A stretch of 32,000 bases of DNA from Ruminococcus albus 7 = DSM 20455 (GCF_000179635.2 NC_014833.1:2790001-2822000); one strand, 5' to 3'; counted from the first letter of the stretch, positions 7,047 through 32,000 are shown. Notes: generated from the sequence alone by a model not told the origin. Numbers and translations are program-made.

Positions 7047-8012
7047 TCAAAGAATCTTGCCCAGCAGCACCAACGCGCCTGTCAGACACATCATATATAT
7101 CATCATACCAAGCAGCATATCAGCATAGGAGATCCCTCCCTTGTTCATTATACGGTAGTTGATGACAGTCCGATCCTCGTCCTCGGACTCATGATAGATC
7201 TTCGTTATATCCTTTTTAGCCTGTCTGTAATAGATATAGTTAGCGAAAAGGCCTGCCAGTATCCCCAGCGTAACTCTTATATAGTACGCTGCCTGCTGCA
7301 GCATCCTGAAATACTCAGACTTTACATTTATGCCGAAATTGATCTTTATACCGTATTCACCTGAGCAGAGATATTCTATCATAGCAGGCAGGTTGAGCGC
7401 TGCCATAAGCACTGCCACGATTATACCCACCTTTCTCATTTTACGGTACATAAAATAAAGTTCAGGCCAGAGGAAGGCAAAAAAATTCACCGAGAGCTTT
7501 CTGTCGGTCTTGCCGAACTTTATAAAGCTGGGCAGGAATCCAAGAGGGTTGGGTCCCACATATCTTGCAAGATCCCCAAGCTTTACACCGCCTATATCCG
7601 AATCCTGATTCAGCCTTACCGGAGTTATATTGATACCCGGTATAGTTGTATTCATCGGATCGGTATCCGACTTCTGAGTGCCGTCTGCCTCATCATTGAA
7701 AGGTCTTGGCGCACCCATATTCACAAGTGGTGTACCGCACTGCTCGCAGTAACGCAGGCTCGGATCATTCTCCGCACCGCACCTTATACACCGCTTCACC
7801 TCAGATGCCTGCGTTACTGTCACTTCTTCAGCAGGGGCATCAGGCATCCAGCCTATATTTTTATCATGGAGCTCACTGTTTATACATTTGCCGTTTTCGA
7901 CATAGCAGCTCCTGTGATATGGTGTGCCGCAATCAGGGCATACCACGATGTCATCTTCATCGGTGAACCGCTTTCCGCAGCATATGCATTTTGAACCTGT
8001 ATAATTTGCCAT
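7047..8012 (-). CDS. Zinc-ribbon membrane protein (DUF2628-like C-terminal TM region)
   Basis: Two CxxC...CxxC zinc ribbons (CICCGK...CPDCG; CIRCGA...CEQCG), then TM helices with FFAFLWPELYFMYRKM. Confidence 0.6.
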   Translation of the reverse strand: MANYTGSKCICCGKRFTDEDDIVVCPDCGTPYHRSCYVENGKCINSELHDKNIGWMPDAPAEEVTVTQASEVKRCIRCGAENDPSLRYCEQCGTPLVNMGAPRPFNDEADGTQKSDTDPMNTTIPGINITPVRLNQDSDIGGVKLGDLARYVGPNPLGFLPSFIKFGKTDRKLSVNFFAFLWPELYFMYRKMRKVGIIVAVLMAALNLPAMIEYLCSGEYGIKINFGINVKSEYFRMLQQAAYYIRVTLGILAGLFANYIYYRQAKKDITKIYHESEDEDRTVINYRIMNKGGISYADMLLGMMIYMMCLTGALVLLGKIL

Positions 8013-8408
8013 CTTTCCTATCCTTTCGGTGTTCCGTCACAGATACATACAAAACTCATAGTATCACTGACAACTACTTTTCAATATATTATACCACACT
8101 CCCTCAAAAATTGCAATACACGGTTTAAATAAACTTCCTGAATCTTCCAAAGCGGCGTTCTTTGTATATCAAAGTGAACAAGTGTACTAAAAATCGTGCT
8201 GATAATGTCGAAGTATATACTAAAATTCTAAAAAATCTGCTTTGTTCAGGGTTTAATTCGTTAGATTTGTGTGTTGTAATTTCATCTGAAGTGAGATATA
8301 ATATATTTTGTATGACATATTCATACAAATAAGGTGATATAATTATAAAAAAAATATTACATATATCAGACGGAGATATACTCCTCCGCTGAAAAGAGGA
8401 ATATTGAT

Positions 8409-9905
8409 ATGAAAAAGAAAAAAGACAGATCAGGGGCTTCTGAGGAACTAAAGGATATGATCTCTCATGCCATGGTGAACAAGAAAAACGGCGAAGCTGA
8501 TGACGAATTGCTGTCAAGCATCGCCAAAGCCAAGAAAAACAAAGAAGCACACGCATCAGACAGCGGTACAAATAACACCAAGGGCAAAAAAGACCGTGAG
8601 ATACATAATGATGATACAGAATACAAGGAAAGACGATTTCCATTGAGATTTCCCCGCAGATGGAGCCTGCGAAAGAAAACAGGCGTCACGCTGGGTATAA
8701 TCTTTCTGGTGCTCGTGCTGGTCATGGCACTCATCGTATTTCTTTTCTTCCACTACACAGGGATGCTGAAGGAACGCGATAATTCAAAAAGGACTGCCAA
8801 GCCGCCTGTAGACAGCCGTGACTTAGTTGATGAGGAGGATACCTTCGACCCTGCAGCCAAGGAAAAAGAGCTGCGTGATATGCTTTCAAAGAAATCAAAG
8901 AAGATATCCAATGAAAAGGTAATGAATGTTCTGCTTATAGGCGAGGATATACGTGATACTGCCGAACAGGACAGAGGCAACACCGATGTTATGATGCTCA
9001 TTTCCCTGAATAAGGAGCACAAGACCATCACACTCACATCGCTGATGAGAGATACCTGGGTATTTATGGATCAGCCCAATATCGCCAACAAACTGAACCA
9101 GGCTTACTGGTACGGCGGTGCAGAGTATCTTTCCAAAGTCGTAGAGGATTATTTCAGCGTAAAGATCGACCGTACAGTAAAGGTGAACTTCCAGCAGTTC
9201 ATAGATATCGCTGACGCTGTGGGCGGACTTGATTTTGAAGTCAGCTACACTGAGGCAGTTGCAATGCGTGACCCCATGGACGAGCAGAACCACTATCTGC
9301 ATAATCCCCAGGGAACCGACTATGTCGACCTCAAACAGTACGGCAAGGACGAATCGGTGAACTATTACGATGTTGACGGAAAGTTCAGTACACATATAGA
9401 ATACCAGTCCGAGAAGGACAATACCATAAATATGCACCTTAACGGTAATCAGGCACTTGCTTATGCCCGTGTGAGGTACGGATGCGGCGATGACTACGGC
9501 AGGACAATGCGTCAGCGTGAAGCTATCAAGGAAATGGTCACCAAGGCGAAAAAACTGAATCTTATAGAGCTGGACGCCCTGATGAACAAGGTGCTCCCCG
9601 AAGTTGAGACCGACCTCACCGAAGGCGAGATCGCTGAGTTATTGCTAAACGCATTTGATTATATGAGTTATGATCTTCAGCAGCTTCGTCTGCCTGTTGA
9701 TGATTACTTCAACATGGGATTTGTAGACAACCAGAGCTGCCTTTTACTGAACACATGGCAGTTCCAGGCAAATGCAGCTATGCTGAGATATATGGTATAC
9801 GGCGACTGCACCACCGTGGAGGAAGCAAGGGAACAGTATCAGAAAGAGATAGATGACGGCACGTTCTATGAAAAGAACGACTTCCAGCCGCCGCAGATAT
9901 GGTAA
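8409..9905 (+). CDS. LytR-CpsA-Psr (LCP) family cell-wall polymer transferase
   Basis: Lys-rich cytoplasmic N-terminus, one TM helix, and the LCP core VMNVLLIGEDIRD...RGNTDVMMLISLN...SLMRDTWV...RVRYG. Confidence 0.8.
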   Translation: MKKKKDRSGASEELKDMISHAMVNKKNGEADDELLSSIAKAKKNKEAHASDSGTNNTKGKKDREIHNDDTEYKERRFPLRFPRRWSLRKKTGVTLGIIFLVLVLVMALIVFLFFHYTGMLKERDNSKRTAKPPVDSRDLVDEEDTFDPAAKEKELRDMLSKKSKKISNEKVMNVLLIGEDIRDTAEQDRGNTDVMMLISLNKEHKTITLTSLMRDTWVFMDQPNIANKLNQAYWYGGAEYLSKVVEDYFSVKIDRTVKVNFQQFIDIADAVGGLDFEVSYTEAVAMRDPMDEQNHYLHNPQGTDYVDLKQYGKDESVNYYDVDGKFSTHIEYQSEKDNTINMHLNGNQALAYARVRYGCGDDYGRTMRQREAIKEMVTKAKKLNLIELDALMNKVLPEVETDLTEGEIAELLLNAFDYMSYDLQQLRLPVDDYFNMGFVDNQSCLLLNTWQFQANAAMLRYMVYGDCTTVEEAREQYQKEIDDGTFYEKNDFQPPQIW

Positions 9906-13712: not shown

Positions 13713-14675
13713 ATGGCAAAGAAAATCGGTGTTCTCACAAGCGGCGGCGATGCGCCCGGAATGAACGCTGCTGTTAGAGCAGTATGCAGAACAGCTCTTC
13801 AGAGAGGCATGGAAGTTGTAGGTATAGAGCGCGGATACAACGGTCTGCTGAACGGCGAGATCGTTGAGATGAATGCAAGGACTGTATCCGGTATCATCCA
13901 GAGAGGCGGTACTTGCCTATATACAGCCAGATGCCCTGAGTTCAAGACTAAAGAGGGCGTTGCAAAGGGTGCTGAGAAGTGCCGTGAGATCGGTCTGGAC
14001 GGCATCGTTGTTATCGGCGGTGACGGATCCTTCAGAGGCGCAGCTGACCTTTCTTCAATGGGTATCCCCTGCATAGGTCTTCCCGGAACTATCGACAACG
14101 ATATATCCTGCACTGAGTATACCATCGGTTATGATACCGCTATGAACACCGCTATGGAAATGATCGACAAGATCAAGGATACTGCACAGTCCCACGACAG
14201 ATGCTCTGTTGTTGAGGTAATGGGCAGAAATGCAGGTTACATAGCTGTAAACGTTGGTGTTGCTGTAGGTGCTGAGGCTGTTATCACTCCTGAGAAGGAC
14301 TATGACCTTGACGCTATCTGCACCAAGATCCAGAATACAATGAAGAGCGGCAAGAACCACTTCGTTGTAGTTGTAGCTGAGGGCGTTGGCAAGACCGATG
14401 AGATCACTAAGATCATCAGCGAGAAGACAGGCGTTGAAACAAGAGCTACTATCCTCGGTCACGTTCAGAGAGGCGGCTCCCCTACCGTTCGTGACAGAGT
14501 TGTTGCAACACAGATGGGTCACCACGCTGTTGAACTGCTCGAGAAGGGTATCGGCAACAGAGTTGTCGGCATGAAGGATAACCACGTATATGACGTTGAT
14601 ATCCAGGAAGCACTGTCCATGAAGAAGCCTTTCGAGGAAGAACTTTACGGTATACTGAACGAAACTGCATTCTGA
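13713..14675 (+). CDS. pfkA: ATP-dependent 6-phosphofructokinase
   Basis: MAKKIGVLTSGGDAPGMNAA, IGGDGS, PGTIDND and MGR motifs. Start at ATG 13713 (GGAGG RBS). Confidence 0.95.
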   Translation: MAKKIGVLTSGGDAPGMNAAVRAVCRTALQRGMEVVGIERGYNGLLNGEIVEMNARTVSGIIQRGGTCLYTARCPEFKTKEGVAKGAEKCREIGLDGIVVIGGDGSFRGAADLSSMGIPCIGLPGTIDNDISCTEYTIGYDTAMNTAMEMIDKIKDTAQSHDRCSVVEVMGRNAGYIAVNVGVAVGAEAVITPEKDYDLDAICTKIQNTMKSGKNHFVVVVAEGVGKTDEITKIISEKTGVETRATILGHVQRGGSPTVRDRVVATQMGHHAVELLEKGIGNRVVGMKDNHVYDVDIQEALSMKKPFEEELYGILNETAF

Positions 14676-14710
14676 TATGCGGCTGTACCAAATATATATG
14701 CGATAAATCT

Positions 14711-14746
14711 GAGAGCGTTCTTTTTAAAAGAACGCTCTTGTTTTGT
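14711..14746 (+). terminator. Terminator after pfkA
   Basis: AGAGCGTTCTTTT / AAAAGAACGCTCT palindrome followed by TGTTTTG. Confidence 0.75.
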
Positions 14747-14942
14747 AAATTTACTGTGAACTATATTTACGAAATGCGAAATCGTTTACGAAAAACTATC
14801 GTCCCGGTATTGGACATTTTGCATTATTCTGTCTTACAAAACAAAGCAGTATCACCATATTCATATAAGCCATTTATGCCTGAAGTACTTTTTTCACTGC
14901 AAATAAATATAAATTAAAACTATTACGCAAACAATGCAGTCA

Positions 14943-14971
14943 TTGACAAAACTTCGCGAAAACGTTATAAT
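14943..14971 (+). promoter_or_regulatory. Consensus sigma-A promoter in the pfkA-prfB gap
   Basis: TTGACA (14943-14948), 17-nt spacer, TATAAT (14966-14971). Confidence 0.6.
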
Positions 14972-15057
14972 TAATTTGTACTTGGGGAAGTATATTTTAT
15001 AAAGGCGGGGATAAGTCATAGTGCAGGGAATAGCACGGACGCATTCCAGAAAACAGG

Positions 15058-20725: not shown

Positions 20726-21238
20726 ATGAAAAAAGCATTATCATTAGTTCTTGCACTGGCATTGACAGCAGGCTGTACCATCAGCGCCACCGCGGAAATC
20801 AAAAAGCGGGTATACGGTGATATAAACGGTGACGGTAAAACCGATGTGACCGATATCTCACTGGCTGCGGCTTACATCAAAGGCAAAAAGCCCCTGACCG
20901 AGGAACAGCTGTTCCTGGGTGACCTGAACTACGACGAAAAGCTGAACGTCACCGACCTTGCAAAGCTGGCAAGCTACGTCAAGTGCGTTTCAGCGAATGA
21001 CGATATCATCAGCAAGATAGAGGGATTCATAAAAGACAACGATCTGCCCGCTGTAGTATACATAGGCGAGGATGAAGTCACGGGCAAGTTCGCGGTAACC
21101 GTTCTTATCAACAGTATTTTCCTTGATCCCGAGATCGACCGAAGCAAGTATGACGCGGAAGTGATCGAAAGAATAAAAGCATTCGCCAATGAAAATAGCT
21201 ATGATCCCGAAAAGATTCAGTTCATCACAGCTGAATAA
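20726..21238 (+). CDS. Secreted or lipid-anchored dockerin-domain protein
   Basis: Signal peptide with LTAGC (lipobox-compatible) and an alternative ATA/E signal-peptidase I site. Duplicated dockerin calcium loops (DINGDGKTDVTD, DLNYDEKLNVTD), then ~85 aa of unknown function. Confidence 0.8.
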   Translation: MKKALSLVLALALTAGCTISATAEIKKRVYGDINGDGKTDVTDISLAAAYIKGKKPLTEEQLFLGDLNYDEKLNVTDLAKLASYVKCVSANDDIISKIEGFIKDNDLPAVVYIGEDEVTGKFAVTVLINSIFLDPEIDRSKYDAEVIERIKAFANENSYDPEKIQFITAE

Positions 21239-22007: not shown

Positions 22008-22409
22008 ATGTACGAATCCAAGCAGCCATATTTCTATGGCACAGGCAGAAGAAAGCACTCTGTTGCCCGCGTTCGTGTTTACGAGGGTACAGGTAAGGTT
22101 ACTATCAACGGCAGAGATATCGACGATTATTTCGGTCTTGAGACTCTCAAGCTGATCGTTCGTCAGCCTTTTGCTGTTACTGATACTGTTGACAAGTACG
22201 ACATCGTTTGCACTGTTACAGGCGGCGGTGTTACAGGTCAGGCAGGCGCAATCAGACATGGTCTTTCCAGAGCTCTGCTCCAGGCTAGCGATGAGTTCAG
22301 ACCTCTCCTCAAGAAGGAAGGCTTCCTCACTCGTGACCCCAGAATGAAGGAAAGAAAGAAGTACGGTCTGAAGGCTGCAAGACGTGCGCCTCAGTTCTCA
22401 AAGAGATAA
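22008..22409 (+). CDS. rpsI: 30S ribosomal protein S9
   Basis: [13 protein letters not shown]...[14 protein letters not shown]...[18 protein letters not shown]. Start at ATG 22008 (AAGGAG RBS), not the ORF-track start at 21870. Confidence 0.95.
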
Positions 22410-22431
22410 TTTTATCCCTGTTGGGAGTGTT

Positions 22432-22458
22432 CAAAAACACGTATTTACGCTGTTTTAT
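22432..22458 (+). repeat. Junction motif, copy 3 (TCAAAAACACGTATTTACGCTGTTTTA)
   Basis: Shares CGTATTTACGC exactly with 30855-30865, and TACGCTGTTTTA with copies 1 and 2. It lies 23 nt after the rpsI stop. Confidence 0.7.
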
Positions 22459-22498
22459 TCGGTTTGGGTTTATCTGAAATACGGTAAAATTCGGACGG

Positions 22499-22529
22499 TA
22501 ACTAACACGTAACTAACGGGTAACTAACA
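22499..22529 (+). repeat. Three tandem GTAACTAAC 9-mers with 11-bp phasing (candidate integrase arm-type sites / attL)
   Basis: Copies start at 22499, 22510 and 22521. GGTAACTAACAC recurs at 30762-30773. Confidence 0.65.
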
Positions 22530-22537
22530 AAAAAATC

Positions 22538-22572
22538 AAGGCATTCATCGGTTGATGGATGCCTTATTTTTA
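22538..22572. terminator. Bidirectional terminator
   Basis: AAGGCATTCATC (22538-22549) / GATGGATGCCTT (22554-22565), with an A-run to the left and a T-run to the right. A second 13-bp perfect hairpin lies at 22578-22611. Confidence 0.7.
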
Positions 22573-22620
22573 TATGAATAGCCGTCAAGAAATGTTTATC
22601 TTGACGGCTATCTTCGTTTA

Positions 22621-23664
22621 CTAAATAATAAGTGAAGAAATAAATCTATCCATATATGGTCTATACAGTTTTATGAAGTTCCTCATTTTATTATCAAATG
22701 TTATGCAATTTGTTATTTTGGGAATTGCTGAAACATGATCAAGACATCCCATCCAAAAGAAGTCAAATATATCATTTTTTTGAAATTTTTGTCCGTTAAG
22801 TAACCATTGAGATAGTAAAACTTGACTTGTGTATTCTTTTTGTGCCTTTGTGAATTTTGGATCAAAGACCTCAGATAATTCTTCAAATATTTTTTGTATG
22901 TTTAATGGAGCATCTGATATTACTTTTACAATCTTGGACATTTCTGGACTGTTTCCTTTATACCTTGTCGCTTGTTCAAATGCTTGATCAAATATTGTAC
23001 TAATATCAACTGGTTTTCCTTGACGATAGTATTCACATACCCACTCAATCAGTATATCTATCTTCAAACAAGCATCACGAATACAATCAATGAAAAAATT
23101 CTTAACAATTCTCTGCGGGTCATTTTTTTCATAACCTTCTTCATATGCTTGTTGTAGCAGTTTGCGGTAATTGTTGTTATTCTTTATTAGTCGTTCATAC
23201 ACAAACCTAAGTGCATATAACTGTTCATTTTGAGGTATATCTTTTTTTGAGGTTATACTCGTATAAGTGTAGATCGTTAGGATTTCATATAGAAAGAAAT
23301 GAGAAAATGCTAACTCACATTGCATTTTGGCATTAGTAATCTTATTAATATAAAGTAATGTACTTTTAGTGTTATCAAATATAGTTTGTAAATCTAATAA
23401 GTCCTTTGAAACATCATAAGTAGGAGTATTGTTCCAAATCTTGACTTTTTTATCTGCAAGAAAAGAAATTATAGATTTTATCGTTTTAGGTGAATCCTTA
23501 AAATGTACTACCATTTCCATGTATGCACTTGATGGTAACGCTATATCGCTTATTTTTTCGCATACACTTCGCAATTTGCTTATATCGATATTTGGTGGAA
23601 TAGGTTGTCCTAATTTTTCATTGCCATAAAAGTAATATAAAGCGTTTGCATCCAGAAATAACAT
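22621..23664 (-). CDS. Hypothetical 347-aa protein, PIN-like nuclease motifs split by a ~240-aa helical insert
   Basis: MLFLDANALYYF (D5), YMEM (E50), NDIFDFFWMGCL (D298/D301) and ITFDNKMRNF (D324). AAGGGAG RBS. Very AT-rich. The family was not recognised. Confidence 0.55.
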   Translation of the reverse strand: MLFLDANALYYFYGNEKLGQPIPPNIDISKLRSVCEKISDIALPSSAYMEMVVHFKDSPKTIKSIISFLADKKVKIWNNTPTYDVSKDLLDLQTIFDNTKSTLLYINKITNAKMQCELAFSHFFLYEILTIYTYTSITSKKDIPQNEQLYALRFVYERLIKNNNNYRKLLQQAYEEGYEKNDPQRIVKNFFIDCIRDACLKIDILIEWVCEYYRQGKPVDISTIFDQAFEQATRYKGNSPEMSKIVKVISDAPLNIQKIFEELSEVFDPKFTKAQKEYTSQVLLSQWLLNGQKFQKNDIFDFFWMGCLDHVSAIPKITNCITFDNKMRNFIKLYRPYMDRFISSLII

Positions 23665-23686
23665 ATTATACTCCCTTTCTTCCTCT

Positions 23687-23719
23687 ATACCGCTGAGAGA
23701 ATAAATCCCTCAGCGGTAT
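23687..23719. other. 11-bp-stem hairpin between the integrase stop and the 347-aa ORF start
   Basis: ATACCGCTGAG (23687-23697) / CTCAGCGGTAT (23709-23719). No T-run on either strand. Confidence 0.4.
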
Positions 23720-23727
23720 CTTTATGC

Positions 23728-24777
23728 CTATATCCTATTGATAGCCTCCAACAGCTCCTGCACATTAACGTGCGTATAGACCTTCTCGGTCAGTGACATT
23801 GCACCCGAATGACCGACGATCTTCTTTATCAGCGTAGGCGATACCTCTTTCTCGGTCATCATCGAGATGCAGGTGTGACGAGTATCGTGCGGCTTGTGGG
23901 AGCAGCCGATCAGCTCCATAACAGGTGTCCAGTAGGAATCGTAGTAGTTGCGGTAGATGAACTGCTTGCCGTCGGGAGTATGGAGCAGATATTCGTTGCC
24001 GTCCTCGTACCACTTCTTGAAGAACGGATAAGTCCTGTCGTGTATCGGTACAACACGGATACCGCTTTCGGTTTTACTTTCCACAACCTTGAAGCAATGC
24101 TCCTCGATGTTGACGTTCTCACGTTTCAGGTCGAGCAGCTCGGACACACGAACTCCGCTGTATATCAGCATGAGGACGATCTGAGCGTAGATGTTGCTTT
24201 CCTGCACCCACAGAGCATCAATTTCTTCCTTACTGAAAGGAGAGCGGTCTGTCTTGTTCGGGTTCTTGTCCTTGAACTTGATAATATCCACATACTCAGA
24301 GTAGTCTTTCATGCAGATCTCATACTTCATGGCATACTCATACATCTGGCTGAAAAGCACTTTCAGCTTGCGGAGCGTCGGATAGTTCTTACCGCAGTTG
24401 TCTACAACACCCTGCAAGTCAGTCAGCTTCAAATCCTTGAACACTCTGTCGTGCAGGGGTTCACAGGTATTATATGACGCTTTGTAGGCTTTGGCGTTGC
24501 TGTCCGAGATCGTGGGGAACTTCTCCGCCGACCACTTCTCAAAGACTTCGGCAAAAGTGATTTTGGAGGCTTCAATGTCATAAGGATTCTTATTGTAGTC
24601 CATGAGCATTTCAAGCCCTTTAGCCCTGGTCGGCGCATAGCCGATAGTGATGTACTGCTGTTTACGCTTGCCTGTCTTTGTGTCAATATCCCAGCCCACC
24701 GTCTTGCGGACAATGTAGGGATTACGCCTGTTGCCCGACAGCTTGTATACAGTGCCAACACCGTTAGCTAACTTCAT
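23728..24777 (-). CDS. int: Tyrosine site-specific integrase (phage-integrase family with N-terminal arm-binding domain)
   Basis: 349 aa. Catalytic signature R (GVRVSELL), HxxR (HDTRHTCISMM) and H...Y (GHSGAMSLTEKVYTHV). The N-terminus VYKLSGNRRNPYIVR is arm-binding-like. Confidence 0.9.
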   Translation of the reverse strand: MKLANGVGTVYKLSGNRRNPYIVRKTVGWDIDTKTGKRKQQYITIGYAPTRAKGLEMLMDYNKNPYDIEASKITFAEVFEKWSAEKFPTISDSNAKAYKASYNTCEPLHDRVFKDLKLTDLQGVVDNCGKNYPTLRKLKVLFSQMYEYAMKYEICMKDYSEYVDIIKFKDKNPNKTDRSPFSKEEIDALWVQESNIYAQIVLMLIYSGVRVSELLDLKRENVNIEEHCFKVVESKTESGIRVVPIHDRTYPFFKKWYEDGNEYLLHTPDGKQFIYRNYYDSYWTPVMELIGCSHKPHDTRHTCISMMTEKEVSPTLIKKIVGHSGAMSLTEKVYTHVNVQELLEAINRI

Positions 24778-25540
24778 TCTGCTTCTCCTCCTTCAGCCGT
24801 ACTACCTCACGGCAGGTGTCAACGATCTCGGAAATGCGGTCGATCTGAGTTTTCAGCTCGTCAAGGGGCATTGGTGCTTCTTCCTGTTCGTCCTTGTTGA
24901 CGGTGAACTTCTTAAAATCGCTGATTATGGACGATGTAAAGCCCTTGACTGTCATTATCAGATAGTTTTCAAATTGCAGATATTCGCTTATGGACATATA
25001 GCACATTGTCTTTCCTGCCTTTTTGAGAGCAATTACATATCCCTCGGAGAATAACTGCAACAACTCAGGCGGCATATCATACACAGGCTGTCCCTCGTCC
25101 GTCTGAGAAAGAATGAAGTAATCGCTCCACACATCACGAGAAGCCTTGATCTCCAGTGTGTAACCGAGGTTAGCAAGCACCGTTGACAGCACGTTCTGAT
25201 TACGCTTGCCAACAAATGTGGCGGTATCGAGCAGCACCGCCTGCGATTTCAGGCTATCAAAGCTGTCCCCCATAAGGTGATTGAACTTCTGTAATGCTTC
25301 ATAATAATCATCGTCATAACTGTCCGCATAGACAACTATATCCTCGACAGGCACATCATAGAACTCAGCAAGCATATTGATATAGCTGTTTGTGATAGTA
25401 GCCTTGCCGTGTTCGATACCGTTGTAATGTGTACGTGAAGCACCGAGAGCTTCTGCAAGCTGATTCTGCGACAAACCACGCTCGGTACGCAGAGCAACTA
25501 TCTTTTCTCTTGTTTTCTCCTGATCTATTGCTGTCTTCAT
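24764..25540 (-). CDS. XRE-family HTH regulator with a ~180-aa C-terminal domain of unknown function
   Basis: HTH LRTERGLSQNQLAEALGASRTHYNGIEHG. Its stop overlaps the integrase start by 14 nt. Start set at ATG 25540 after GGAGGG (ORF-track start 25552). Confidence 0.8.
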   Translation of the reverse strand: MKTAIDQEKTREKIVALRTERGLSQNQLAEALGASRTHYNGIEHGKATITNSYINMLAEFYDVPVEDIVVYADSYDDDYYEALQKFNHLMGDSFDSLKSQAVLLDTATFVGKRNQNVLSTVLANLGYTLEIKASRDVWSDYFILSQTDEGQPVYDMPPELLQLFSEGYVIALKKAGKTMCYMSISEYLQFENYLIMTVKGFTSSIISDFKKFTVNKDEQEEAPMPLDELKTQIDRISEIVDTCREVVRLKEEKQNEVS

Positions 25541-25552
25541 TTTGCCCTCCAC

Positions 25553-25711: not shown

Positions 25712-25966
25712 ATGAATAATACTTCTAATTCTCTGCCGGCTTTTACAGGCAGAAACGTACCGATCAAGGAGATCGCACAGGCAACAGGCAAAGACCCGCA
25801 GTACATCAGAATCGGCTTACAGAAAGGCATATTCCGTTTCGGATATGCTTTCAAAAAAGAAGGTTCAAGTGAATACAACTATCTTTGCCCTGACAAGAAA
25901 GTATGGGAGGACTTAGGCTATTTCAGAGCAGAAACGGAGGTCAGCGATGCAGGAAATGATGAATGA
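25712..25966 (+). CDS. Small DNA-binding protein, Cro/excisionase-like (putative)
   Basis: 84 aa. VPIKEIAQATGKDPQYIRIGLQKG looks like a helix-turn-helix. GGAAGGAG RBS. Divergent from the XRE gene and overlaps the primase ORF start. Confidence 0.5.
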   Translation: MNNTSNSLPAFTGRNVPIKEIAQATGKDPQYIRIGLQKGIFRFGYAFKKEGSSEYNYLCPDKKVWEDLGYFRAETEVSDAGNDE

Positions 25967-27623
25967 TGCTGCGGAGCTGATTACGGTGGCGAACAACGGG
26001 GATGATCTCCCCGTTGTACCTGATGAGGAGGTACAGTCCGAAGAACAGGAGAAGTCTGAGCTTGATAAGCTGAAAGAAGAACTGTCAGCGGTAACGTATG
26101 ACGATATACTTAACAGCACTGCGCCCTATGAAAAGATACTTACCTTGCCTAATGAGTTTGCAATATCGCAGTATATCACGGCATTCAGACAAGTAGCCAA
26201 GAAATTCAAGCTGACGGCGGACTTTGACAGCCTTGTTGCTCCGTATAAGGACAAGGCTCTGCGTCAGCTCAAAGAGGCAGAGCATCAGGAAAAGAAAGAG
26301 GATAAAAGCAAATATCCAAAGTGGTGGGACGGAACACAGGTCAATGAGGATGTATTCTGCACCGAACTTCTCACACAGCACACACTGTACTGCATCAATG
26401 GGCTGTTCTATGATATTGACGGCGAGTTCCTTATCTCGGAGCTGAGCAAGGTCATATACGAGCGTATCAAGCCTTATGTAGTGAAGAATGTCGCAGACCG
26501 TACCAAACGTCTGGTGGAAGCCATGAAGATAAAGTGCTACCGTCCTGCACCTGAGCCTAACGAACACACTATACATCTGAAAAACGGCACACTTCATCTG
26601 GCACAGGGACACTTTGTATTCTCTCAGGGAAAGCAGTTTACAATGAACCGCCTGGGCATTGAATACCGTTCCGATGCACCGAAGCCTGAACGCTGGCTCA
26701 AGTTTGTGCAGGAGCTATTGAACGAACAGGACGTTATGACCTTGCAGGAGTATATGGGGTATCTGCTGATACCGTCCACAAGAGCACAGAAAATGCTGAT
26801 GATCTCAGGCAACGGCGGCGAAGGAAAGTCCCGTGTCGGCAAGGTGCTTTTCGAGATCATGGGATATAAGAATTCCGTAAGCGGAAGTGTATCAGGTCTG
26901 GACAACGGAGCTGCTGCCCGATTCAATAAGGTCAAGCTCCTCGGAAAGCTCTGCATGATAGATGATGATATGGATATGTCTGCACTTGAAAAGACAGAGT
27001 TCCTCAAACAGCTTATCACAGCGGAGATACCTATGGAGATCGAGCCGAAAGGCAGTCCTTCTTTTCAGGCGTTATTGTACACAAGAGTAATCGCATTCGG
27101 CAACAATCCGATCTCTGCACTTTATGATCGCAGTGAAGGCTTCTTCCGCAGGCAGATGATACTTGTTGCAAAGCCCGTTCCGAAAGACCGTACAGCAGAC
27201 AAACATCTGACCGAAAAACTGCTTGCAGAAAAAGAAGGAATATTCCGTTGGTGCCTTGAAGGATTGGAACGACTTATCGCCAATGATTTTGAGTTTACGA
27301 TCAGCGATCAGGCGAAAGAAAACCTCAAACGCAGCGAGCGTGAATGCAACAATATCATTCCATTTATGGAGAGCGAGCATGACTTCAAGTTTGACGCTTC
27401 GGGGCAGATACATTCTCAGGAATTATACTGGGCATATCAGAGTTGGTGCAGGCTCAACAGCCTTGATGAATTATCAAGAAGAACCTTCTCCGGCTATCTG
27501 AAATCTCATGCAGATGATTACGGTATTACCTATTCCGAAAATGCTGTCAACGAACAAGGCAGGAGAGCCAGAGGATTCCTTGGAATGAGATACACTTATC
27601 GTCCCCCGACGATCATGTACTGA
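25947..27623 (+). CDS. P4/D5-family primase-helicase (phage/plasmid primase C-terminal NTPase)
   Basis: WLKFVQELL...LQEYMGYLLIP...MLMISGNGGEGKSRVGKV (Walker A) and CMIDDDMDM (Walker B). This is the layout typical of P4-type replicases on islands and satellites. Confidence 0.8.
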   Translation: MQEMMNDAAELITVANNGDDLPVVPDEEVQSEEQEKSELDKLKEELSAVTYDDILNSTAPYEKILTLPNEFAISQYITAFRQVAKKFKLTADFDSLVAPYKDKALRQLKEAEHQEKKEDKSKYPKWWDGTQVNEDVFCTELLTQHTLYCINGLFYDIDGEFLISELSKVIYERIKPYVVKNVADRTKRLVEAMKIKCYRPAPEPNEHTIHLKNGTLHLAQGHFVFSQGKQFTMNRLGIEYRSDAPKPERWLKFVQELLNEQDVMTLQEYMGYLLIPSTRAQKMLMISGNGGEGKSRVGKVLFEIMGYKNSVSGSVSGLDNGAAARFNKVKLLGKLCMIDDDMDMSALEKTEFLKQLITAEIPMEIEPKGSPSFQALLYTRVIAFGNNPISALYDRSEGFFRRQMILVAKPVPKDRTADKHLTEKLLAEKEGIFRWCLEGLERLIANDFEFTISDQAKENLKRSERECNNIIPFMESEHDFKFDASGQIHSQELYWAYQSWCRLNSLDELSRRTFSGYLKSHADDYGITYSENAVNEQGRRARGFLGMRYTYRPPTIMY

Positions 27624-27632
27624 GCAACAATT

Positions 27633-27809
27633 TTACACGGTTCGATACACACTTTTATACACACCTGAAAAGAAAGAATATCGAGGCTTACACACATACA
27701 CAGATATTCTGTTTCTTTGATACGGGAAAGCCACAGAAATATTTTTTCTTTTTTGATGATAAAACTTCGGTCAGTTCTGCCGTTGCGTGTGAAGTGTGTA
27801 ATCGTGTAA
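27633..27809. repeat. Iteron-like (A)TACACAC repeats flanking an AT-rich core; candidate replication origin
   Basis: Forward copies at 27645-27652, 27657-27664 and 27689-27703. Inverted copies lie within 27786-27809 (GCGTGTGAAGTGTGTAATCGTGTAA). AT-rich tract at 27741-27765. It lies immediately 3' of the replicase gene. Confidence 0.45.
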
Positions 27810-27934
27810 ATTGAATAGCTGTCAGAAAAGAAAAATGACAAGTTTGACAGGCACAGAAATGCCCGGAATTCTCTTTTGAAAAAGAGAAAAATGAAGCCAC
27901 GTCCACAGGTGCGTATGGAAGAGTAGCAAGCACG

Positions 27935-27972
27935 GTATTGTGTGGGTACAAAAACTGAAAACCACACAATAC
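27935..27972. repeat. Perfect 11-bp inverted repeat upstream of mobC (candidate oriT or operator)
   Basis: GTATTGTGTGG (27935-27945) / CCACACAATAC (27962-27972) with a 16-nt spacer. Confidence 0.4.
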
Positions 27973-28034
27973 AAAGCTTGTGAGAGGGACACCCCTCAGA
28001 CCCCGATTTTTAGTATACGAAAGAGAGGATTTCT

Positions 28035-28397
28035 ATGAGAAAAAGTGAGAAGAAAAAGCAGGTAATAAAGCGTGACCGCTACCTGAAAATACGAGTAACC
28101 GAAGAGGAGCTTGAAGCATTCAAACGTAAGTTTAAAAACAGTGGAATGCGAACATTTTCCGGCTTCGTCAGAGCAATGATATTTGAAGGCTATATCGTTC
28201 ATTTCAATGAAGAGGAACTACGTGAAATATACCACCTGGTAGCTAACATTTCCAACAACATCAGTCAGATCATTCTTCACGTCAGCCGAGACGATGATTC
28301 TTTCGACAGCGACATTGCTGAAATCAAAGAGAAGATGGCGCAGATATGGCAGCCGCTGAACTTTTTTACGTGTAAAGTTTTGCAGCTGAGACACTGA
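28035..28397 (+). CDS. mobC: MobC-family relaxosome accessory protein
   Basis: RDRYLKIRVTEEELEAFKRK...SGFVRAMI... and VANISNNISQI, matching the MobC pattern (...R.t..E...l...A......iGnNlNQia). Confidence 0.7.
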   Translation: MRKSEKKKQVIKRDRYLKIRVTEEELEAFKRKFKNSGMRTFSGFVRAMIFEGYIVHFNEEELREIYHLVANISNNISQIILHVSRDDDSFDSDIAEIKEKMAQIWQPLNFFTCKVLQLRH

Positions 28398-28542
28398 CAG
28401 AATACAATGCGCATTGCACTGGATTTTATCTTCTTTTTGCTGCGCTCTTCACAAAAATAATTACAATCATTCCGCATAGCTGGACTCTTGAATATCTGTC
28501 CGCTATAATAGATTCACAACAATAATTTATGGAGGCGATTTT

Positions 28543-28755
28543 ATGTTTAGAATACCCGAACTCGCAATGCCGAGAACTCGCACAGTCACTACCATCTGCA
28601 ACGGCAAGAAAGAGATATGGGACGATCGTGAGGAAGCACAGAATTTCTTTCTCAGACAGATGATGACTACCGAGGGTGAGGAACGTGACCGAGCAGAGTG
28701 CGTTTACATTCAGCTCATTCATGGGCTGGAGGAGTGTTCGGACGAGGATGAATAA
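28543..28755 (+). CDS. Hypothetical 70-aa acidic protein
   Basis: GGAGG RBS 7 nt before the ATG, followed by a strong terminator. No family recognised. Confidence 0.5.
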   Translation: MFRIPELAMPRTRTVTTICNGKKEIWDDREEAQNFFLRQMMTTEGEERDRAECVYIQLIHGLEECSDEDE

Positions 28756-28770
28756 GAGAATATAATTATG

Positions 28771-28805
28771 AACTCTCAACTGCTAATAGGTTGAGAGTTT
28801 TTCTA
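28771..28805 (+). terminator. Rho-independent terminator
   Basis: AACTCTCAAC (28771-28780) / GTTGAGAGTT (28790-28799) followed by a T-run. Confidence 0.8.
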
Positions 28806-28880
28806 TAATCAACTTTATCTAATTGACTAAATAGACAAAATGTGATATAATTATAGAAAAAATACTGGAGAGGTGTTACT

Positions 28881-30698
28881 ATGAAAGAAAACAAAGAATT
28901 AAGAATTGTCGATAGTAAAGTTCATTCTCTTTCTGAAATATTTTCAGCAAGCTACACTGTTGACTTCTATCAGCGTGAATACGTATGGCAGAAAAAGCAG
29001 ATAGAAGACCTTATTTCAGATCTGACAATCGAATTTCTCAAGAACTGGAAACCTGAGCACGATACAACTGTTACCGGAGAATACGATCCTTACTACATGG
29101 GCGAAGTTGTCCTTTCTGTAAAACCCGGTAATGTTAATTCGGTAATTGATGGTCAGCAGAGAATAACGACTTTTACCCTGCTATTGATGTACATTATTAA
29201 AAGATTTGAGAATACTCCTGATTTTCCTAAAAGTGATATGGAGAGACTGGTTTATAAAAATGAGCGTGGAGCTTGGAAGTTTACTCTTGGAATAGACGAA
29301 CGAAATAAATGTATGAAAGCTCTCTACGAAAAAGGCAGTTATTCACCTCCAGATGGTGAGAATATGTCTGTATCCATAAAAAACTTAGTCGATAGATATA
29401 ATGATATCGGAGAATGCTGGGATGATAGAATAAACGAATCCAACATTAATTGCTTTGTATATTGGCTTATGGGAAATGTAATGTTTTCAAAAGTCTGGAC
29501 TAATAGCGATGAGTTTGCCTATGTGATATTTGAAACTATGAATGACCGTGGCTTATCGCTTACTCAGATAGAAATGCTCCGCAGTTATCTGCTTGCCAAT
29601 ATAAATGATGAAAATCGCCAGGACTCTATGGAATTGTACGATCAGGTCATATCAGAACTGGCAACTGTAAAGCTAAGTTCAAAATCAAAAGCTGAGTTTG
29701 AGTTTTTCAAGATTTTTTTCAGAGGACATTATGCAGATAACCTTTCTCAAAGCGCTGATTCAAATTCCGATTTCATCGTGATCGGTCAACAATTTCATCG
29801 TTGGGTTAGAGATAAAAGCAAAGACCTCGGTTTAAATACATCAGGGGATTATGTGGACTTTATTAACAAGATAGCATTTTTCGCCCGAAAGTATATCTAC
29901 ATTATGAAGAAAATAGAGAACAGAAAAGACAGCGTTACAGACTATCTTTATCTGATAGTAAATAGCGATTATGGCTTTACTCTTCAGTCTGCTCTTCTGT
30001 TGTCAGCTATTTCATATAATGATACTGATGCTATTGTAGATGAGAAAATCAAGATTGTATCAAAATATCTGACGAAAGTGCTCTCGTGGCGTGTATGGAG
30101 ACACACAAGTATAGCTCAGAGTTCTATGGAGGATAAGATTTACAAACTTTGCAAACAGCTCCGAGGAAAGAATATCGATGAAATTAAAGAAATTCTTGCA
30201 ACTGAACCTATCGAAATCCCCGAACTTAGTACTCCGCCAACTCTTAACATGATGAATAAACCTAAGATCAGAGTGCTGTTATCGCTTATTACAGAAATAG
30301 TAGCAAGAGAATCAAATGAGTCTGATTATATGCTGAACAAGGAGAATATCGAGGTTGAGCATATATGGGCAGACCATTATGAATGGTTCAGTGAAATATT
30401 CCCTAATGAGGCTGACTTTAATACATATAGAAATAATATCGGTGGTCTGCTTGTACTACCAAAAAGCTTCAACGCTTCGTATGGCGATATGAAATACAAA
30501 GATAAGGTAGAGTTGTATTTCAGCCAAAACATTCTTGCTCAGTCATTGTGTGAAAAGAAATATACTAACAGCCCTGGTTTCAAGAACTTCATAGAGAAAA
30601 GTAACCTTGATATACACTCGTATGACGATTACACTCGTGATTCTATTACAGAACGAGCAGAATTATATAGGCAGATATTACTGTGGAATTGGAAATAA
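28881..30698 (+). CDS. DUF262/DUF1524 two-domain nuclease, GmrSD-like (type IV restriction family)
   Basis: N-terminus FYQREYVWQKKQIEDL...VIDGQQRITTF (DUF262 DGQQR motif, codons at 29148-29162). C-terminus IEVEHIWADH...NIGGLLVLPKSFNASYGDMKYKDK (His-Me/HNH-like DUF1524). GGAGAGGTG RBS. AT-rich. Confidence 0.75.
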   Translation: MKENKELRIVDSKVHSLSEIFSASYTVDFYQREYVWQKKQIEDLISDLTIEFLKNWKPEHDTTVTGEYDPYYMGEVVLSVKPGNVNSVIDGQQRITTFTLLLMYIIKRFENTPDFPKSDMERLVYKNERGAWKFTLGIDERNKCMKALYEKGSYSPPDGENMSVSIKNLVDRYNDIGECWDDRINESNINCFVYWLMGNVMFSKVWTNSDEFAYVIFETMNDRGLSLTQIEMLRSYLLANINDENRQDSMELYDQVISELATVKLSSKSKAEFEFFKIFFRGHYADNLSQSADSNSDFIVIGQQFHRWVRDKSKDLGLNTSGDYVDFINKIAFFARKYIYIMKKIENRKDSVTDYLYLIVNSDYGFTLQSALLLSAISYNDTDAIVDEKIKIVSKYLTKVLSWRVWRHTSIAQSSMEDKIYKLCKQLRGKNIDEIKEILATEPIEIPELSTPPTLNMMNKPKIRVLLSLITEIVARESNESDYMLNKENIEVEHIWADHYEWFSEIFPNEADFNTYRNNIGGLLVLPKSFNASYGDMKYKDKVELYFSQNILAQSLCEKKYTNSPGFKNFIEKSNLDIHSYDDYTRDSITERAELYRQILLWNWK

Positions 30699-30762
30699 GC
30701 TATAAGTTGTCTGCTTATTCAGCAACAATAAAATAGCCCTGCATTGTCACAAAACAAGCAGG

Positions 30763-30782
30763 GTAACTAACACACAACTAAC
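30763..30782 (+). repeat. Two phased 9-mers, GTAACTAAC and ACAACTAAC (candidate arm sites / attR)
   Basis: Starts at 30763 and 30774 (11-bp phasing). They match the triplet at 22499-22529. Confidence 0.6.
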
Positions 30783-30844
30783 AAAACAGCCTCAAAACAA
30801 CGCAATAGCGTAATTGCACTTTATCTAAGAGATAATCAGACACC

Positions 30845-30871
30845 TCAAAACTTGCGTATTTACGCACTTTG
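30845..30871 (+). repeat. Junction motif, copy 4 (TCAAAACTTGCGTATTTACGCACTTTG)
   Basis: The reverse complement reads AAAGTGCGTAAATACGC, identical to the core of copies 1 and 2. The same-strand 11-mer CGTATTTACGC is shared with 22441-22451. Confidence 0.7.
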
Positions 30872-30875
30872 CGAG

Positions 30876-30916
30876 TGGTCAAATGCTCTTTGGTCAACTA
30901 TTGGTCAAATGGTCAC
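30876..30916 (+). repeat. Four TGGTCA(A/C) boxes next to the second integrase (candidate arm-type sites)
   Basis: Boxes at 30876-30882, 30891-30897, 30902-30908 and 30910-30916. Confidence 0.5.
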
Positions 30917-30945
30917 CTCCCTGTTCGCGCAGGGAGGTTTTTATT
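30916..30945 (+). terminator. Terminator-like hairpin
   Basis: CCTCCCTG (30916-30923) / CAGGGAGG (30930-30937) followed by TTTTT. Confidence 0.6.
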
Positions 30946-30950
30946 TGCCT

Positions 30951-32000
30951 TTACGCAAGGCACAGCTCGATCTGCTCGGCAGTTCGGGCTTTTGTTTTTC
31001 GCAGAACATCGGCATAGATGTCAGCGGTGACGTTCACATCACAGTGACCGAGATGCTCGGACACAACTTTCAGGTCGATACCGCTGTTCAGGAGCATTGT
31101 TGCGTTGCAGTGACGGAGCTGATGCAGTGTCATATCCTCGAATTCCGTTCCTTTGGTGAAGCGTTTGAGGGACTGATATACCGAATTGCGGTCACGGTAG
31201 TTCCCTCTTGCAGACACGAATACCATTTCAGGGTGAGCGAAATCATCACCGAGGGCGAGTTTCAGCTTCTCGATGTAGTCCTTCTGAGCGAGAAGGACTT
31301 TTTTCAGCTCCTGTCCCATACCGATGATGCGGATACTGCTCTCGGTCTTAGGATCGGTCAGTTCGTGCTTTCCGCCTATATCGGTCAGCGTATGGTTTAT
31401 GGAGATAGTGTTGTTCTCGAAGTCAATGTCCTCCCACGCAAGTCCGAGACACTCACCCGAACGCATACCCGTGTACAGCAGCACCTTTATGATACGCTTG
31501 AAATCCTCGTCCCACGGCTTGCTTTCAAGGTAAGCCATGAACCTTTTGAGCTTGTCCTCCTCCAAAGCCTTATTCTTGCGGCTTTTCTTCCGCTTTGGCA
31601 GTACCACGTTACGGCAGGGAGTATCACGGATAAAGCCCTGCTCTGCTCCTCTGCGGAAGATGCTCTGTACAATGACGTACAGCTTCTTGACAGTCGCAGG
31701 GTTCAGGTCATAGGACTGCATTATCTGCGTCAGCCTGGGAGCGTTGATGTCCTTGACTTTTATGTTACCGAGAACAGGCTCGATGTGGTTTTTGTACTGC
31801 CCCCAATAGGTGTAGACGGTACTCTCTTTCAGCTCCTGGGGAGCGTAGTTTGTGAAATACCAGTCGGCAAGCTCGGAAAAACGCATATTCTCGTTGAGCA
31901 GAGAATAACCCTTGCAGTGTCTCTCGAACTCAAAAGCGTACTCCTGAGCCAGCTTCTCGGCTTTCTTTTCAGTCACCCCGACAGGCGGAGTGAAAGTGGT
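30951..32000 (-). CDS. int: Tyrosine site-specific integrase of a second element (5' end outside the window)
   Basis: R (TGMRSGECLGL), HxxR (HQLRHCNATML) and H...Y (LGHCDVNVTADIYADV). The ORF-track start at 31976 is a GTG, and the frame stays open to position 32000, so the N-terminus is probably truncated by the window. Confidence 0.85.
   Translation of the reverse strand, partial: TTFTPPVGVTEKKAEKLAQEYAFEFERHCKGYSLLNENMRFSELADWYFTNYAPQELKESTVYTYWGQYKNHIEPVLGNIKVKDINAPRLTQIMQSYDLNPATVKKLYVIVQSIFRRGAEQGFIRDTPCRNVVLPKRKKSRKNKALEEDKLKRFMAYLESKPWDEDFKRIIKVLLYTGMRSGECLGLAWEDIDFENNTISINHTLTDIGGKHELTDPKTESSIRIIGMGQELKKVLLAQKDYIEKLKLALGDDFAHPEMVFVSARGNYRDRNSVYQSLKRFTKGTEFEDMTLHQLRHCNATMLLNSGIDLKVVSEHLGHCDVNVTADIYADVLRKTKARTAEQIELCLA

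Follow-up and report, generated by a model that had tools for sequence, protein, structure and literature searches.

DS-3 is a one-protein anti-phage system that was described in the DefensePredictor study and validated in Escherichia coli (bioRxiv 10.1101/2025.01.08.631726; Science 2026, PMC13092281). The protein (WP_022645725.1, working id PIN8) comes from E. coli, is 340 amino acids long, and gives HHpred matches to the PIN domain at residues 1-75 and 276-327, such that the domain is split between the two termini (DefensePredictor supplement). Protection is 10^3- to 10^5-fold, with plating lowered by about 3.5 logs (T4), 5.6 logs (RB69) and 4.7 logs (Candy); the defence by DS-3 is lost in the mutants D7A or E42A, and the protein was cloned and found to work without a cognate antitoxin (PMC13092281). 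In this report we deal with a distant relative of DS-3 in a gut member of the Clostridia, encoded at positions 22,621 to 23,664 of a 32,000-nucleotide stretch of the Ruminococcus albus 7 = DSM 20455 genome (GCF_000179635.2 NC_014833.1:2790001-2822000), the whole of which is referred to below as the window. We consider it likely that the product of this gene, here termed the split-PIN gene, is a DS-3-family nuclease that acts against phage as a single polypeptide, and that the gene is carried as cargo of an integrative element at rpsI with a GmrSD gene at the element's other end.

The PIN superfamily harbors catalytic acidic residues after strand S1, after strand S2, at the N-terminus of the crossover helix H4, and after strand S4 (Matelska et al. 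2017, PMC5499597). The VapC toxins (PF01850; PDB 4xgq, 5wz4 and 3tnd) are contiguous proteins of around 130 amino acids that are partnered by a VapB antitoxin. DUF4935, also referred to as PIN_12 (PF16289), encompasses uncharacterised and usually monocistronic proteins of around 350 amino acids with a VapC-class PIN domain and a helical insert, in which the first ~200 residues already contain the entire PIN domain and the C-terminal region after it is alpha/beta (PMC5499597). DS-5B and the integron cassette defence 'Cosus' (Brc24), both single-gene or small anti-phage systems, are among its members. The FEN-like PIN nucleases have a helical arch with an essential lysine inserted in the core (PMC5499597). 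In the literature on split or bipartite PIN domains we found nothing besides DefensePredictor, and no PIN system is mentioned in a gut functional-metagenomics paper on defence.

Relationship of the split-PIN protein to DS-3

The gene in question is as follows.

22621..23664, minus strand: DS-3-family split-PIN gene; open reading frame with an ATG start, 347 amino acids plus stop, full-length DS-3 homology, and an AlphaFold2 model with a predicted local distance difference test score (pLDDT) of 90.9

An exhaustive HMMER search with the split-PIN protein retrieves 97 clusters (50% identity) at E <= 0.001, 48 of them at E <= 1e-10 and nearly all 340-380 amino acids in length and matched end to end, whereas a word-indexed search with the same query yields only 7 close relatives. 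A first-pass annotation of this DNA had called the protein an orphan, a label that these relatives show to be wrong. Across a family alignment of 56 sequences, with a mean column identity of about 20%, E50, E117 and N297 are invariant, and D5, N7, Y10, G14, K113, Y178, K296, D298, D301 and D324 are conserved in at least 90%. D5 is found in 54 of the 56 members, with gaps in the remaining two, and E50 in all 56.

When this alignment is compared with DS-3 by hhalign, the probability is 99.6% and the E-value 1.2e-23 over 317 columns; the match spans positions 3-348 of the family and 4-331 of DS-3, and the homology therefore includes the insert between the two parts of the PIN domain. The family hidden Markov model recovers DS-3 over its full length with 119.7 bits (hmmsearch), and a phmmer search with DS-3 matches 23 proteins from the set gathered with the window query, the best at 3.7e-22. 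The relationship is thus remote (~17% identity) but firm at the profile level. The residues D5, E50, K113, E117 and Y178 of the split-PIN protein are equivalent to D7, E42, K104, E108 and Y170 of DS-3 and, in the C-terminal half, K296/N297/D298 to K292/N293/D294, D301 to D297, and D324 to D315. These ten conserved residues are identical in the two proteins and include both of the residues mutated in DS-3, D7 and E42 being matched by D5 and E50. The motifs in DS-3 that are common to the family are IIDTNILY, SLIEVI, KISREAEF, RNGY, RKLRKNDIFDF and LTLDKGF.

Like DS-3, the split-PIN protein is the product of a lone gene, is around 340 amino acids long, has its PIN segments at the chain ends around a long helical region, and is without an antitoxin. 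Unlike DS-3, it is hosted by a gut or rumen member of the Clostridia rather than E. coli, and its gene occupies the slot between attachment (att) site and integrase in a small integrative element. The first-pass annotation had proposed a candidate defence or abortive-infection effector, and this proposal gains support from the full-length homology to DS-3 and from the correspondence of the residues mutated there to D5 and E50. It had also not recognised the architecture as a named system and had raised it as a possibly new one; the architecture had been published as DS-3 (bioRxiv January 2025; Science 2026), and therefore no new system is represented here.

As DS-3 has been validated in E. coli only, the locus extends the family to gut and rumen Clostridia at the low identity given above. 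The diverse alignment that results separates constrained from free positions, and highlights residues beyond the two that were mutated, namely D298, D301, D324, K296, N297, K113, E117 and Y178. The locus should also be of use for the annotation of defence genes in gut microbiomes, where the current defence databases give nothing.

The interrupted PIN domain

The AlphaFold2 model derived from the 56-sequence alignment has a pLDDT of 90.9 and a predicted template modelling (TM) score of 0.90; this alignment was used in place of 8 close homologs, from which the model was unusable (pLDDT 51). Three parts can be assigned.

23413..23664, minus strand: N-terminal PIN half, residues 1-84, predicted to hold strand 1, D5, helices, strand 2, E50, helices and strand 3
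22795..23412, minus strand: predicted insert made up wholly of helices (about 8), residues ~85-290, from the AlphaFold2 secondary structure and conservation
22621..22794, minus strand: C-terminal PIN half, residues 291-347, with K296-N297-D298..D301 predicted to open the crossover helix, followed by strand 4, D324 and C-terminal helices

In the model, the order of elements is a strand at residues 2-4, helices, a strand at 41-44, helices at 45-54 and 59-71, and a strand at 75-77, after which there are only helices between 86 and 289, then a helix at 297-309, a strand at 319-321, and the C-terminal helices. D5 comes after the strand at 2-4, E50 after the strand at 41-44, D298 opens the helix at 297-309, and D324 comes after the strand at 319-321, meaning that all four acidic positions of the superfamily are filled by conserved residues. 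With the catalytic acids in these positions, the insert of ~210 residues therefore sits between S3 and H4. The modelled structure thus supports a PIN topology that is interrupted by a large, all-helical insert. This division of the domain had been anticipated in the first-pass annotation, which the high-scoring model confirms in respect of the helical insert and corrects in respect of its length, ~210 residues (about 85-295) rather than ~240. The open reading frame, motifs and residue numbers given there are exact, with D5 in MLFLDANALYYF, E50 in YMEM, D298/D301 in NDIFDFFWMGCL, and D324 in NCITFDNKMRNF.

The best matches to the model in a Foldseek search of the PDB are VapC toxins, led by 4xgq (probability 1.00) and followed by 5wz4, 3zvk, 7by3, 5k8j, 5x3t and 3tnd, and a Foldseek search against viral structures gave no match. 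At the level of sequence, the Pfam PIN family (PF01850) is matched by 11 of the 56 full-length members (best 2.2e-5) and PIN_12 by 4. When residues 85-290 are removed computationally and matches are counted at E <= 0.1, 16 of the 44 resulting cores match PIN (best 1.8e-6) and 10 match PIN_12, with each unrelated Pfam family being matched by one core at most; one spliced core spans positions 2-114 of the 120 in the PIN model, crossing the splice junction. The sole member with a listed bit score, P0099, reaches 22.4 bits against a PF01850 cutoff of 23.6. The PIN-like catalytic motifs that had been read from the sequence are borne out by this combination of acids conserved at ~20% identity, their placement in the superfamily positions, the fold matches to VapC, and the 16 of 44 cores that match PIN.

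The split-PIN protein shares with VapC the order of the core fold and the same four acidic positions, and VapC provides its best structural matches. It differs in the ~210-residue helical bundle within the domain, in having no antitoxin, and in the additional conserved residues K113, E117, Y178, K296 and N297. PIN_12 proteins are of similar size and are weakly matched by the spliced cores counted above, but in the split-PIN protein the last two catalytic motifs lie at the extreme C-terminus (residues 296-324), outside the first 200 residues. Membership of PIN_12/DUF4935 was considered and rejected: the best listed PF16289 match, at 19.6 bits, falls short of the cutoff of 32 and covers only model positions 1-87 of 172, corresponding to the N-terminal half, and an hhalign comparison of the family profile with DS-5B aligns 42 N-terminal columns at a probability of 1.3%. 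The split-PIN proteins therefore form a separate family within the VapC-like group. The FEN/XPG-type nucleases likewise have a PIN-like core broken by a helical insertion with a conserved basic residue; this is an analogy only, as they are grouped separately by structure, possess an H3TH DNA-binding domain and a larger number of acidic residues, and gave no fold match here.

The conserved residues of the insert are K113, E117, Y178, K188, Q275, Y278 and W287, of which K113 and E117 sit on the first long insert helix. Mean column entropy is around 2.35 in the PIN halves, the most conserved part of the protein, 2.5-2.7 in the insert helices at 99-138 and 273-295, and 3.0-3.1 in the centre at 139-272, which is the most variable part and has the most insertions and deletions. 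No resembling structure was found for the insert in a fold search of the PDB and viral structures. This gradient agrees with an insert that has its base packed against the active site, or contributing to it, and a fast-evolving tip, as would be expected of a specificity or sensor surface, and it makes the hypervariable stretch 139-272 a candidate specificity region. A bolder and rather unlikely proposal is that the insert is a new phage-sensing, autoinhibitory and catalysis-assisting domain, with a PIN active site that would be lined by K113/E117 together with Y178, Q275, Y278 and W287, in the manner of the lysine-bearing FEN helical arch; the DS-3 family would then encompass gated, structure-specific nucleases whose variable helices at 139-272 read a phage-specific trigger. 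A second such proposal is that the att-integrase slot of rpsI-targeting elements would be a swapping hotspot for such genes.

Homolog loci, proposed activity and alternatives

The split-PIN gene lies downstream of a pair of genes in the same orientation, with a gap of 63 nucleotides between the integrase stop and the split-PIN start codon.

23728..24777, minus strand: tyrosine integrase of the element, Pfam Phage_integrase, E 3.1e-19
24764..25552, minus strand: XRE-family helix-turn-helix regulator overlapping the integrase gene, Pfam HTH_3, E 2.9e-11

This spacing and co-orientation had been noted in the first-pass annotation and are confirmed, with Pfam identifying both genes. The G+C content of the split-PIN gene is ~30% compared with ~45-47% in its surroundings, and the base counts previously given as a sign of AT-richness (14 G+C in 60 nucleotides at 22621-22680 against 36 in 60 at 13741-13800) are exact on recounting.

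The neighbourhoods of homologs were surveyed at 23 loci. The 22 loci from named genomes are all from gut or rumen bacteria, mostly Clostridia with one Bacteroidaceae record, and the hosts include Ruminococcus, Oscillospiraceae, Lachnospiraceae, Roseburia, Waltera, Butyrivibrio and Christensenellaceae. At all 23 loci the homolog is AT-richer than its flanks, by a mean of 11 G+C points. An integrase is found immediately upstream in 4 of the 23, and the neighbours that pertain to mobile elements encompass integrases, a serine recombinase, phage portal and terminase proteins, RepA_N and TnpV. Those that pertain to defence include AbiLi, MkoC, pAgo/Aga, AriA, type IV and type I restriction-modification systems, HEPN/Toprim, Mrr, SMEK and ThsB-TIR. 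On this genomic evidence, there is no neighbour or partner gene that is conserved across the 23 loci.

In one of these loci, L001, rpsI is again the site, and the homolog there is 92% identical. Protein identity between the window and L001 is 92% for the split-PIN protein, 71% for the integrase, 29% for the XRE regulator and 86% for ribosomal protein L13, and over 200 nucleotides of the split-PIN gene the DNA is 100% identical (window 22185-23741 against L001 9924-11481). This disparity points to recent horizontal exchange of the gene between diverged elements. When the window is compared with L001, identity seems to break off within rpsI, but this is an artefact of a masked run of N in L001.

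The proposed mechanism is that one VapC-like PIN active site would be built from both ends of the chain, with the N-terminal half contributing D5 and E50 and the C-terminal half contributing D298, D301 and D324 together with N297 and K296. Because there is no antitoxin, the enzyme would most likely be silenced by its own helical insert or be limited to a substrate that is present only in infection. Upon infection, cleavage of RNA, in keeping with the VapC relatives that cut tRNA or rRNA, would bring phage production to a halt.

A number of results weigh against this reading. The split-PIN protein itself has 0 matches in Pfam, PADLOC, NCBIfam, PHROGs and the sequences of the PDB; for PADLOC-DB v2 (2023), which is older than the description of DS-3, this amounts to 0 families at E <= 10. 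It does not match PF01850 either at full length or when spliced, and neither the full-length nor the insert-deleted family profile finds a PIN or VapC protein among the PDB sequences. Comparison of an AlphaFold model by Foldseek, as suggested in the first-pass annotation, places VapC toxins at the top, but with weak values, the best E being 0.066 with a TM score of 0.46 on the target and a root-mean-square deviation of ~11 Å, which is high because the large insert interrupts the alignment. A direct BLASTP comparison with DS-3 sees only a 20-residue block containing KNDIFDF (E 4e-4), and because of this the link depends on profile methods at such low identity. Some homologs adjoin housekeeping genes (for example laccase, decarboxylase and NrdD), and a tblastn search for homologs in phage and plasmid collections gave no match. 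Phage defence itself was demonstrated for DS-3 in E. coli, and the Clostridia clade would share it by virtue of homology.

The alternatives that were weighed are each less likely than an anti-phage nuclease. An improbable one is a toxin role for the protein in a VapBC-like type II toxin-antitoxin pair, which would stabilise the element by addiction and have an antitoxin that has escaped recognition. The PIN/VapC fold and catalytic residues agree with such a role, as does the location in a mobile element beside an XRE-family helix-turn-helix protein and an integrase. Small co-oriented open reading frames also occur upstream of homologs: in two lineages there is one at 12-28 nucleotides before the homolog, of 70 amino acids in the first (L014 740-952 and L016 3548-3760) and of 122 amino acids with a DUF7336 match in the second (L025 9602-9973 and L026 1755-2123). 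These lineage-specific frames could be partners or regulators. Against a toxin, the 23 loci hold neither a conserved neighbour nor a conserved small open reading frame, the gene upstream in the window is the integrase, and the 63-nucleotide gap has room for nothing of the size of an antitoxin. The XRE regulator and the split-PIN gene are not co-evolving, because the former is so much less conserved between the window and L001 than the latter, and DS-3 functions as one protein without a cognate antitoxin. A 324-amino-acid gene upstream of the homolog P0005 was also considered as a partner and rejected, since it lacks any domain match, does not encode an integrase, and is missing from the other loci.

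Quite improbable, too, is a factor for exclusion or competition that acts on plasmids or on rival elements of the rpsI site instead of on phages. Many defence nucleases act on plasmids as well, two elements are apparently arranged in tandem at the same att site in the window, and the split-PIN gene has apparently passed from element to element in the recent past, but the experimental data for the family are solely anti-phage and there is no pointer to plasmid targeting. Very improbable, lastly, is a structure-specific DNA nuclease that would work for the element itself, in its replication, its excision or the processing of transfer intermediates, with the insert as a FEN-type helical arch. In its favour, the essential arch lysine of FEN-like nucleases (PMC5499597) may be likened to the family's invariant K113/E117 pair, the gene is co-oriented with and adjoins an integrase in 4 of 23 loci, and the element encodes a D5-type primase-helicase. 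Against it, the fold matches are of the VapC class and not the FEN class, 19 of the 23 homologs are not beside an integrase, no gene of this kind separates the window's second integrase (30951-31976) from its att copy, the gene's G+C content and identity pattern are unlike those of the rest of the element, and the homolog DS-3 defends against phage alone.

The rpsI element and its flanking signals

The split-PIN gene follows rplM and rpsI, the latter ending at 22409, and is flanked by the following features.

22395..22532, no strand assigned: attL region; segment across the rpsI stop (22395-22455), with a further copy at 30821-30870, then three GTAACTAAC repeats at 22498-22532
22538..22565, no strand assigned: hairpin with an A-run before and a T-run after, terminator-like for rpsI from the left and for the split-PIN gene from the right
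22578..22611, no strand assigned: second hairpin of 13 pairs, 10 nucleotides past the split-PIN stop codon
23671..23678, minus strand: Shine-Dalgarno-like AAAGGGAG, 6 nucleotides before the split-PIN ATG, read from the sequence
23687..23719, minus strand: stable hairpin past the integrase stop and ahead of the split-PIN gene; 14-bp stem, free energy -24.5 kcal/mol, z = -6.3, without a T-run

The hairpin at 22538-22565 can terminate in both directions because of its A-run on one side and T-run on the other, which upholds the strong bidirectional terminator that had been placed after the gene. For the hairpin at 23687-23719, the position and the absence of a T-run were correctly described in the earlier annotation, and the stem folds as 14 bp instead of the 11 bp given there. 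This hairpin is kept in L001 and, lying upstream of the split-PIN ribosome-binding site, might act in processing, in stabilisation or as an attenuator, or else be an inverted repeat to which a protein binds.

Beyond the integrase and the XRE regulator, the remainder of the element and its right-hand boundary are made up as follows.

25947..27623, plus strand: D5-like primase-helicase of a replication module, with matches to DUF5906, D5_N and Pox_D5
28035..28397, plus strand: NikA-like/MobC-like relaxosome accessory protein, by domain match
28881..30698, plus strand: GmrSD type IV restriction enzyme, Pfam GmrSD_N E 2.2e-29 and GmrSD_C E 3.5e-11
30751..30870, no strand assigned: attR region or junction with a second element; GTAACTAAC repeats at 30763-30786, then a degenerate rpsI-end segment at 30821-30870
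30951..31976, minus strand: second tyrosine integrase, directly past the right-hand att copy with no cargo gene between

The att-like copies, with GTAACTAAC repeats inside both, therefore delimit an element of ~8.4 kb, which also holds an 84-amino-acid open reading frame. The three repeats at 22498-22532 are possibly arm sites of the integrase. The att site is not a tRNA gene, because a scan of the window found no tRNA and no Rfam family. That the split-PIN gene occupies a cargo slot inside the element and beside att, as first suggested from its position, is supported by the repeats at 22395-22532 and 30751-30870. The GmrSD gene falls within an AT-rich region, 27500-31000 (G+C 0.36-0.41), and the element thus has a defence gene at both ends.

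The element is integrative and probably mobilizable. No recognisable relaxase is found in the window element (28035-28779 region) despite the NikA-like gene, whereas L001 has both, and the window element may use a relaxase in trans or have lost mobilisation. In the place of GmrSD, L001 holds a D12-class methyltransferase, an AlwI-type restriction enzyme and a ThsB-like TIR protein (L001 490-4562), and the distal end of the element looks like a variable slot for defence cargo. The locus shows the split-PIN gene to be a swappable cassette of small integrative elements, whose other cargo is GmrSD, Thoeris-like TIR or restriction-modification genes. The position of the second integrase right after the att copy suggests two tandem elements at one site; the short repeats of the second element are GGTCAAAT-like (30876-30915) and differ from the GTAACTAAC repeats.

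Other observations concern individual loci. In L002 (2913-7821), P0005 is followed by a 910-amino-acid SMEK_N-domain protein and an AAA-ATPase_like/PDDEXK_9 protein; the validated systems tabulated by DefensePredictor include one with the working id SMEK (DS-27). In L013 (3610-6666), from an Eubacteriales metagenome genome, a 1018-amino-acid protein with a Pfam RdRP match, unusual in bacteria, is encoded two genes upstream of a family member. Outside the element, the window has further AT-rich patches at 1-2000, 8001-8500 and 14501-15000 (G+C 0.33-0.39). A Ruminococcus-like host that bears a cellulosome, in agreement with the taxonomy of the closest homologs, is suggested by a gene beside rplM, on the plus strand at 20726-21238, for a small, secreted-looking type I dockerin protein.

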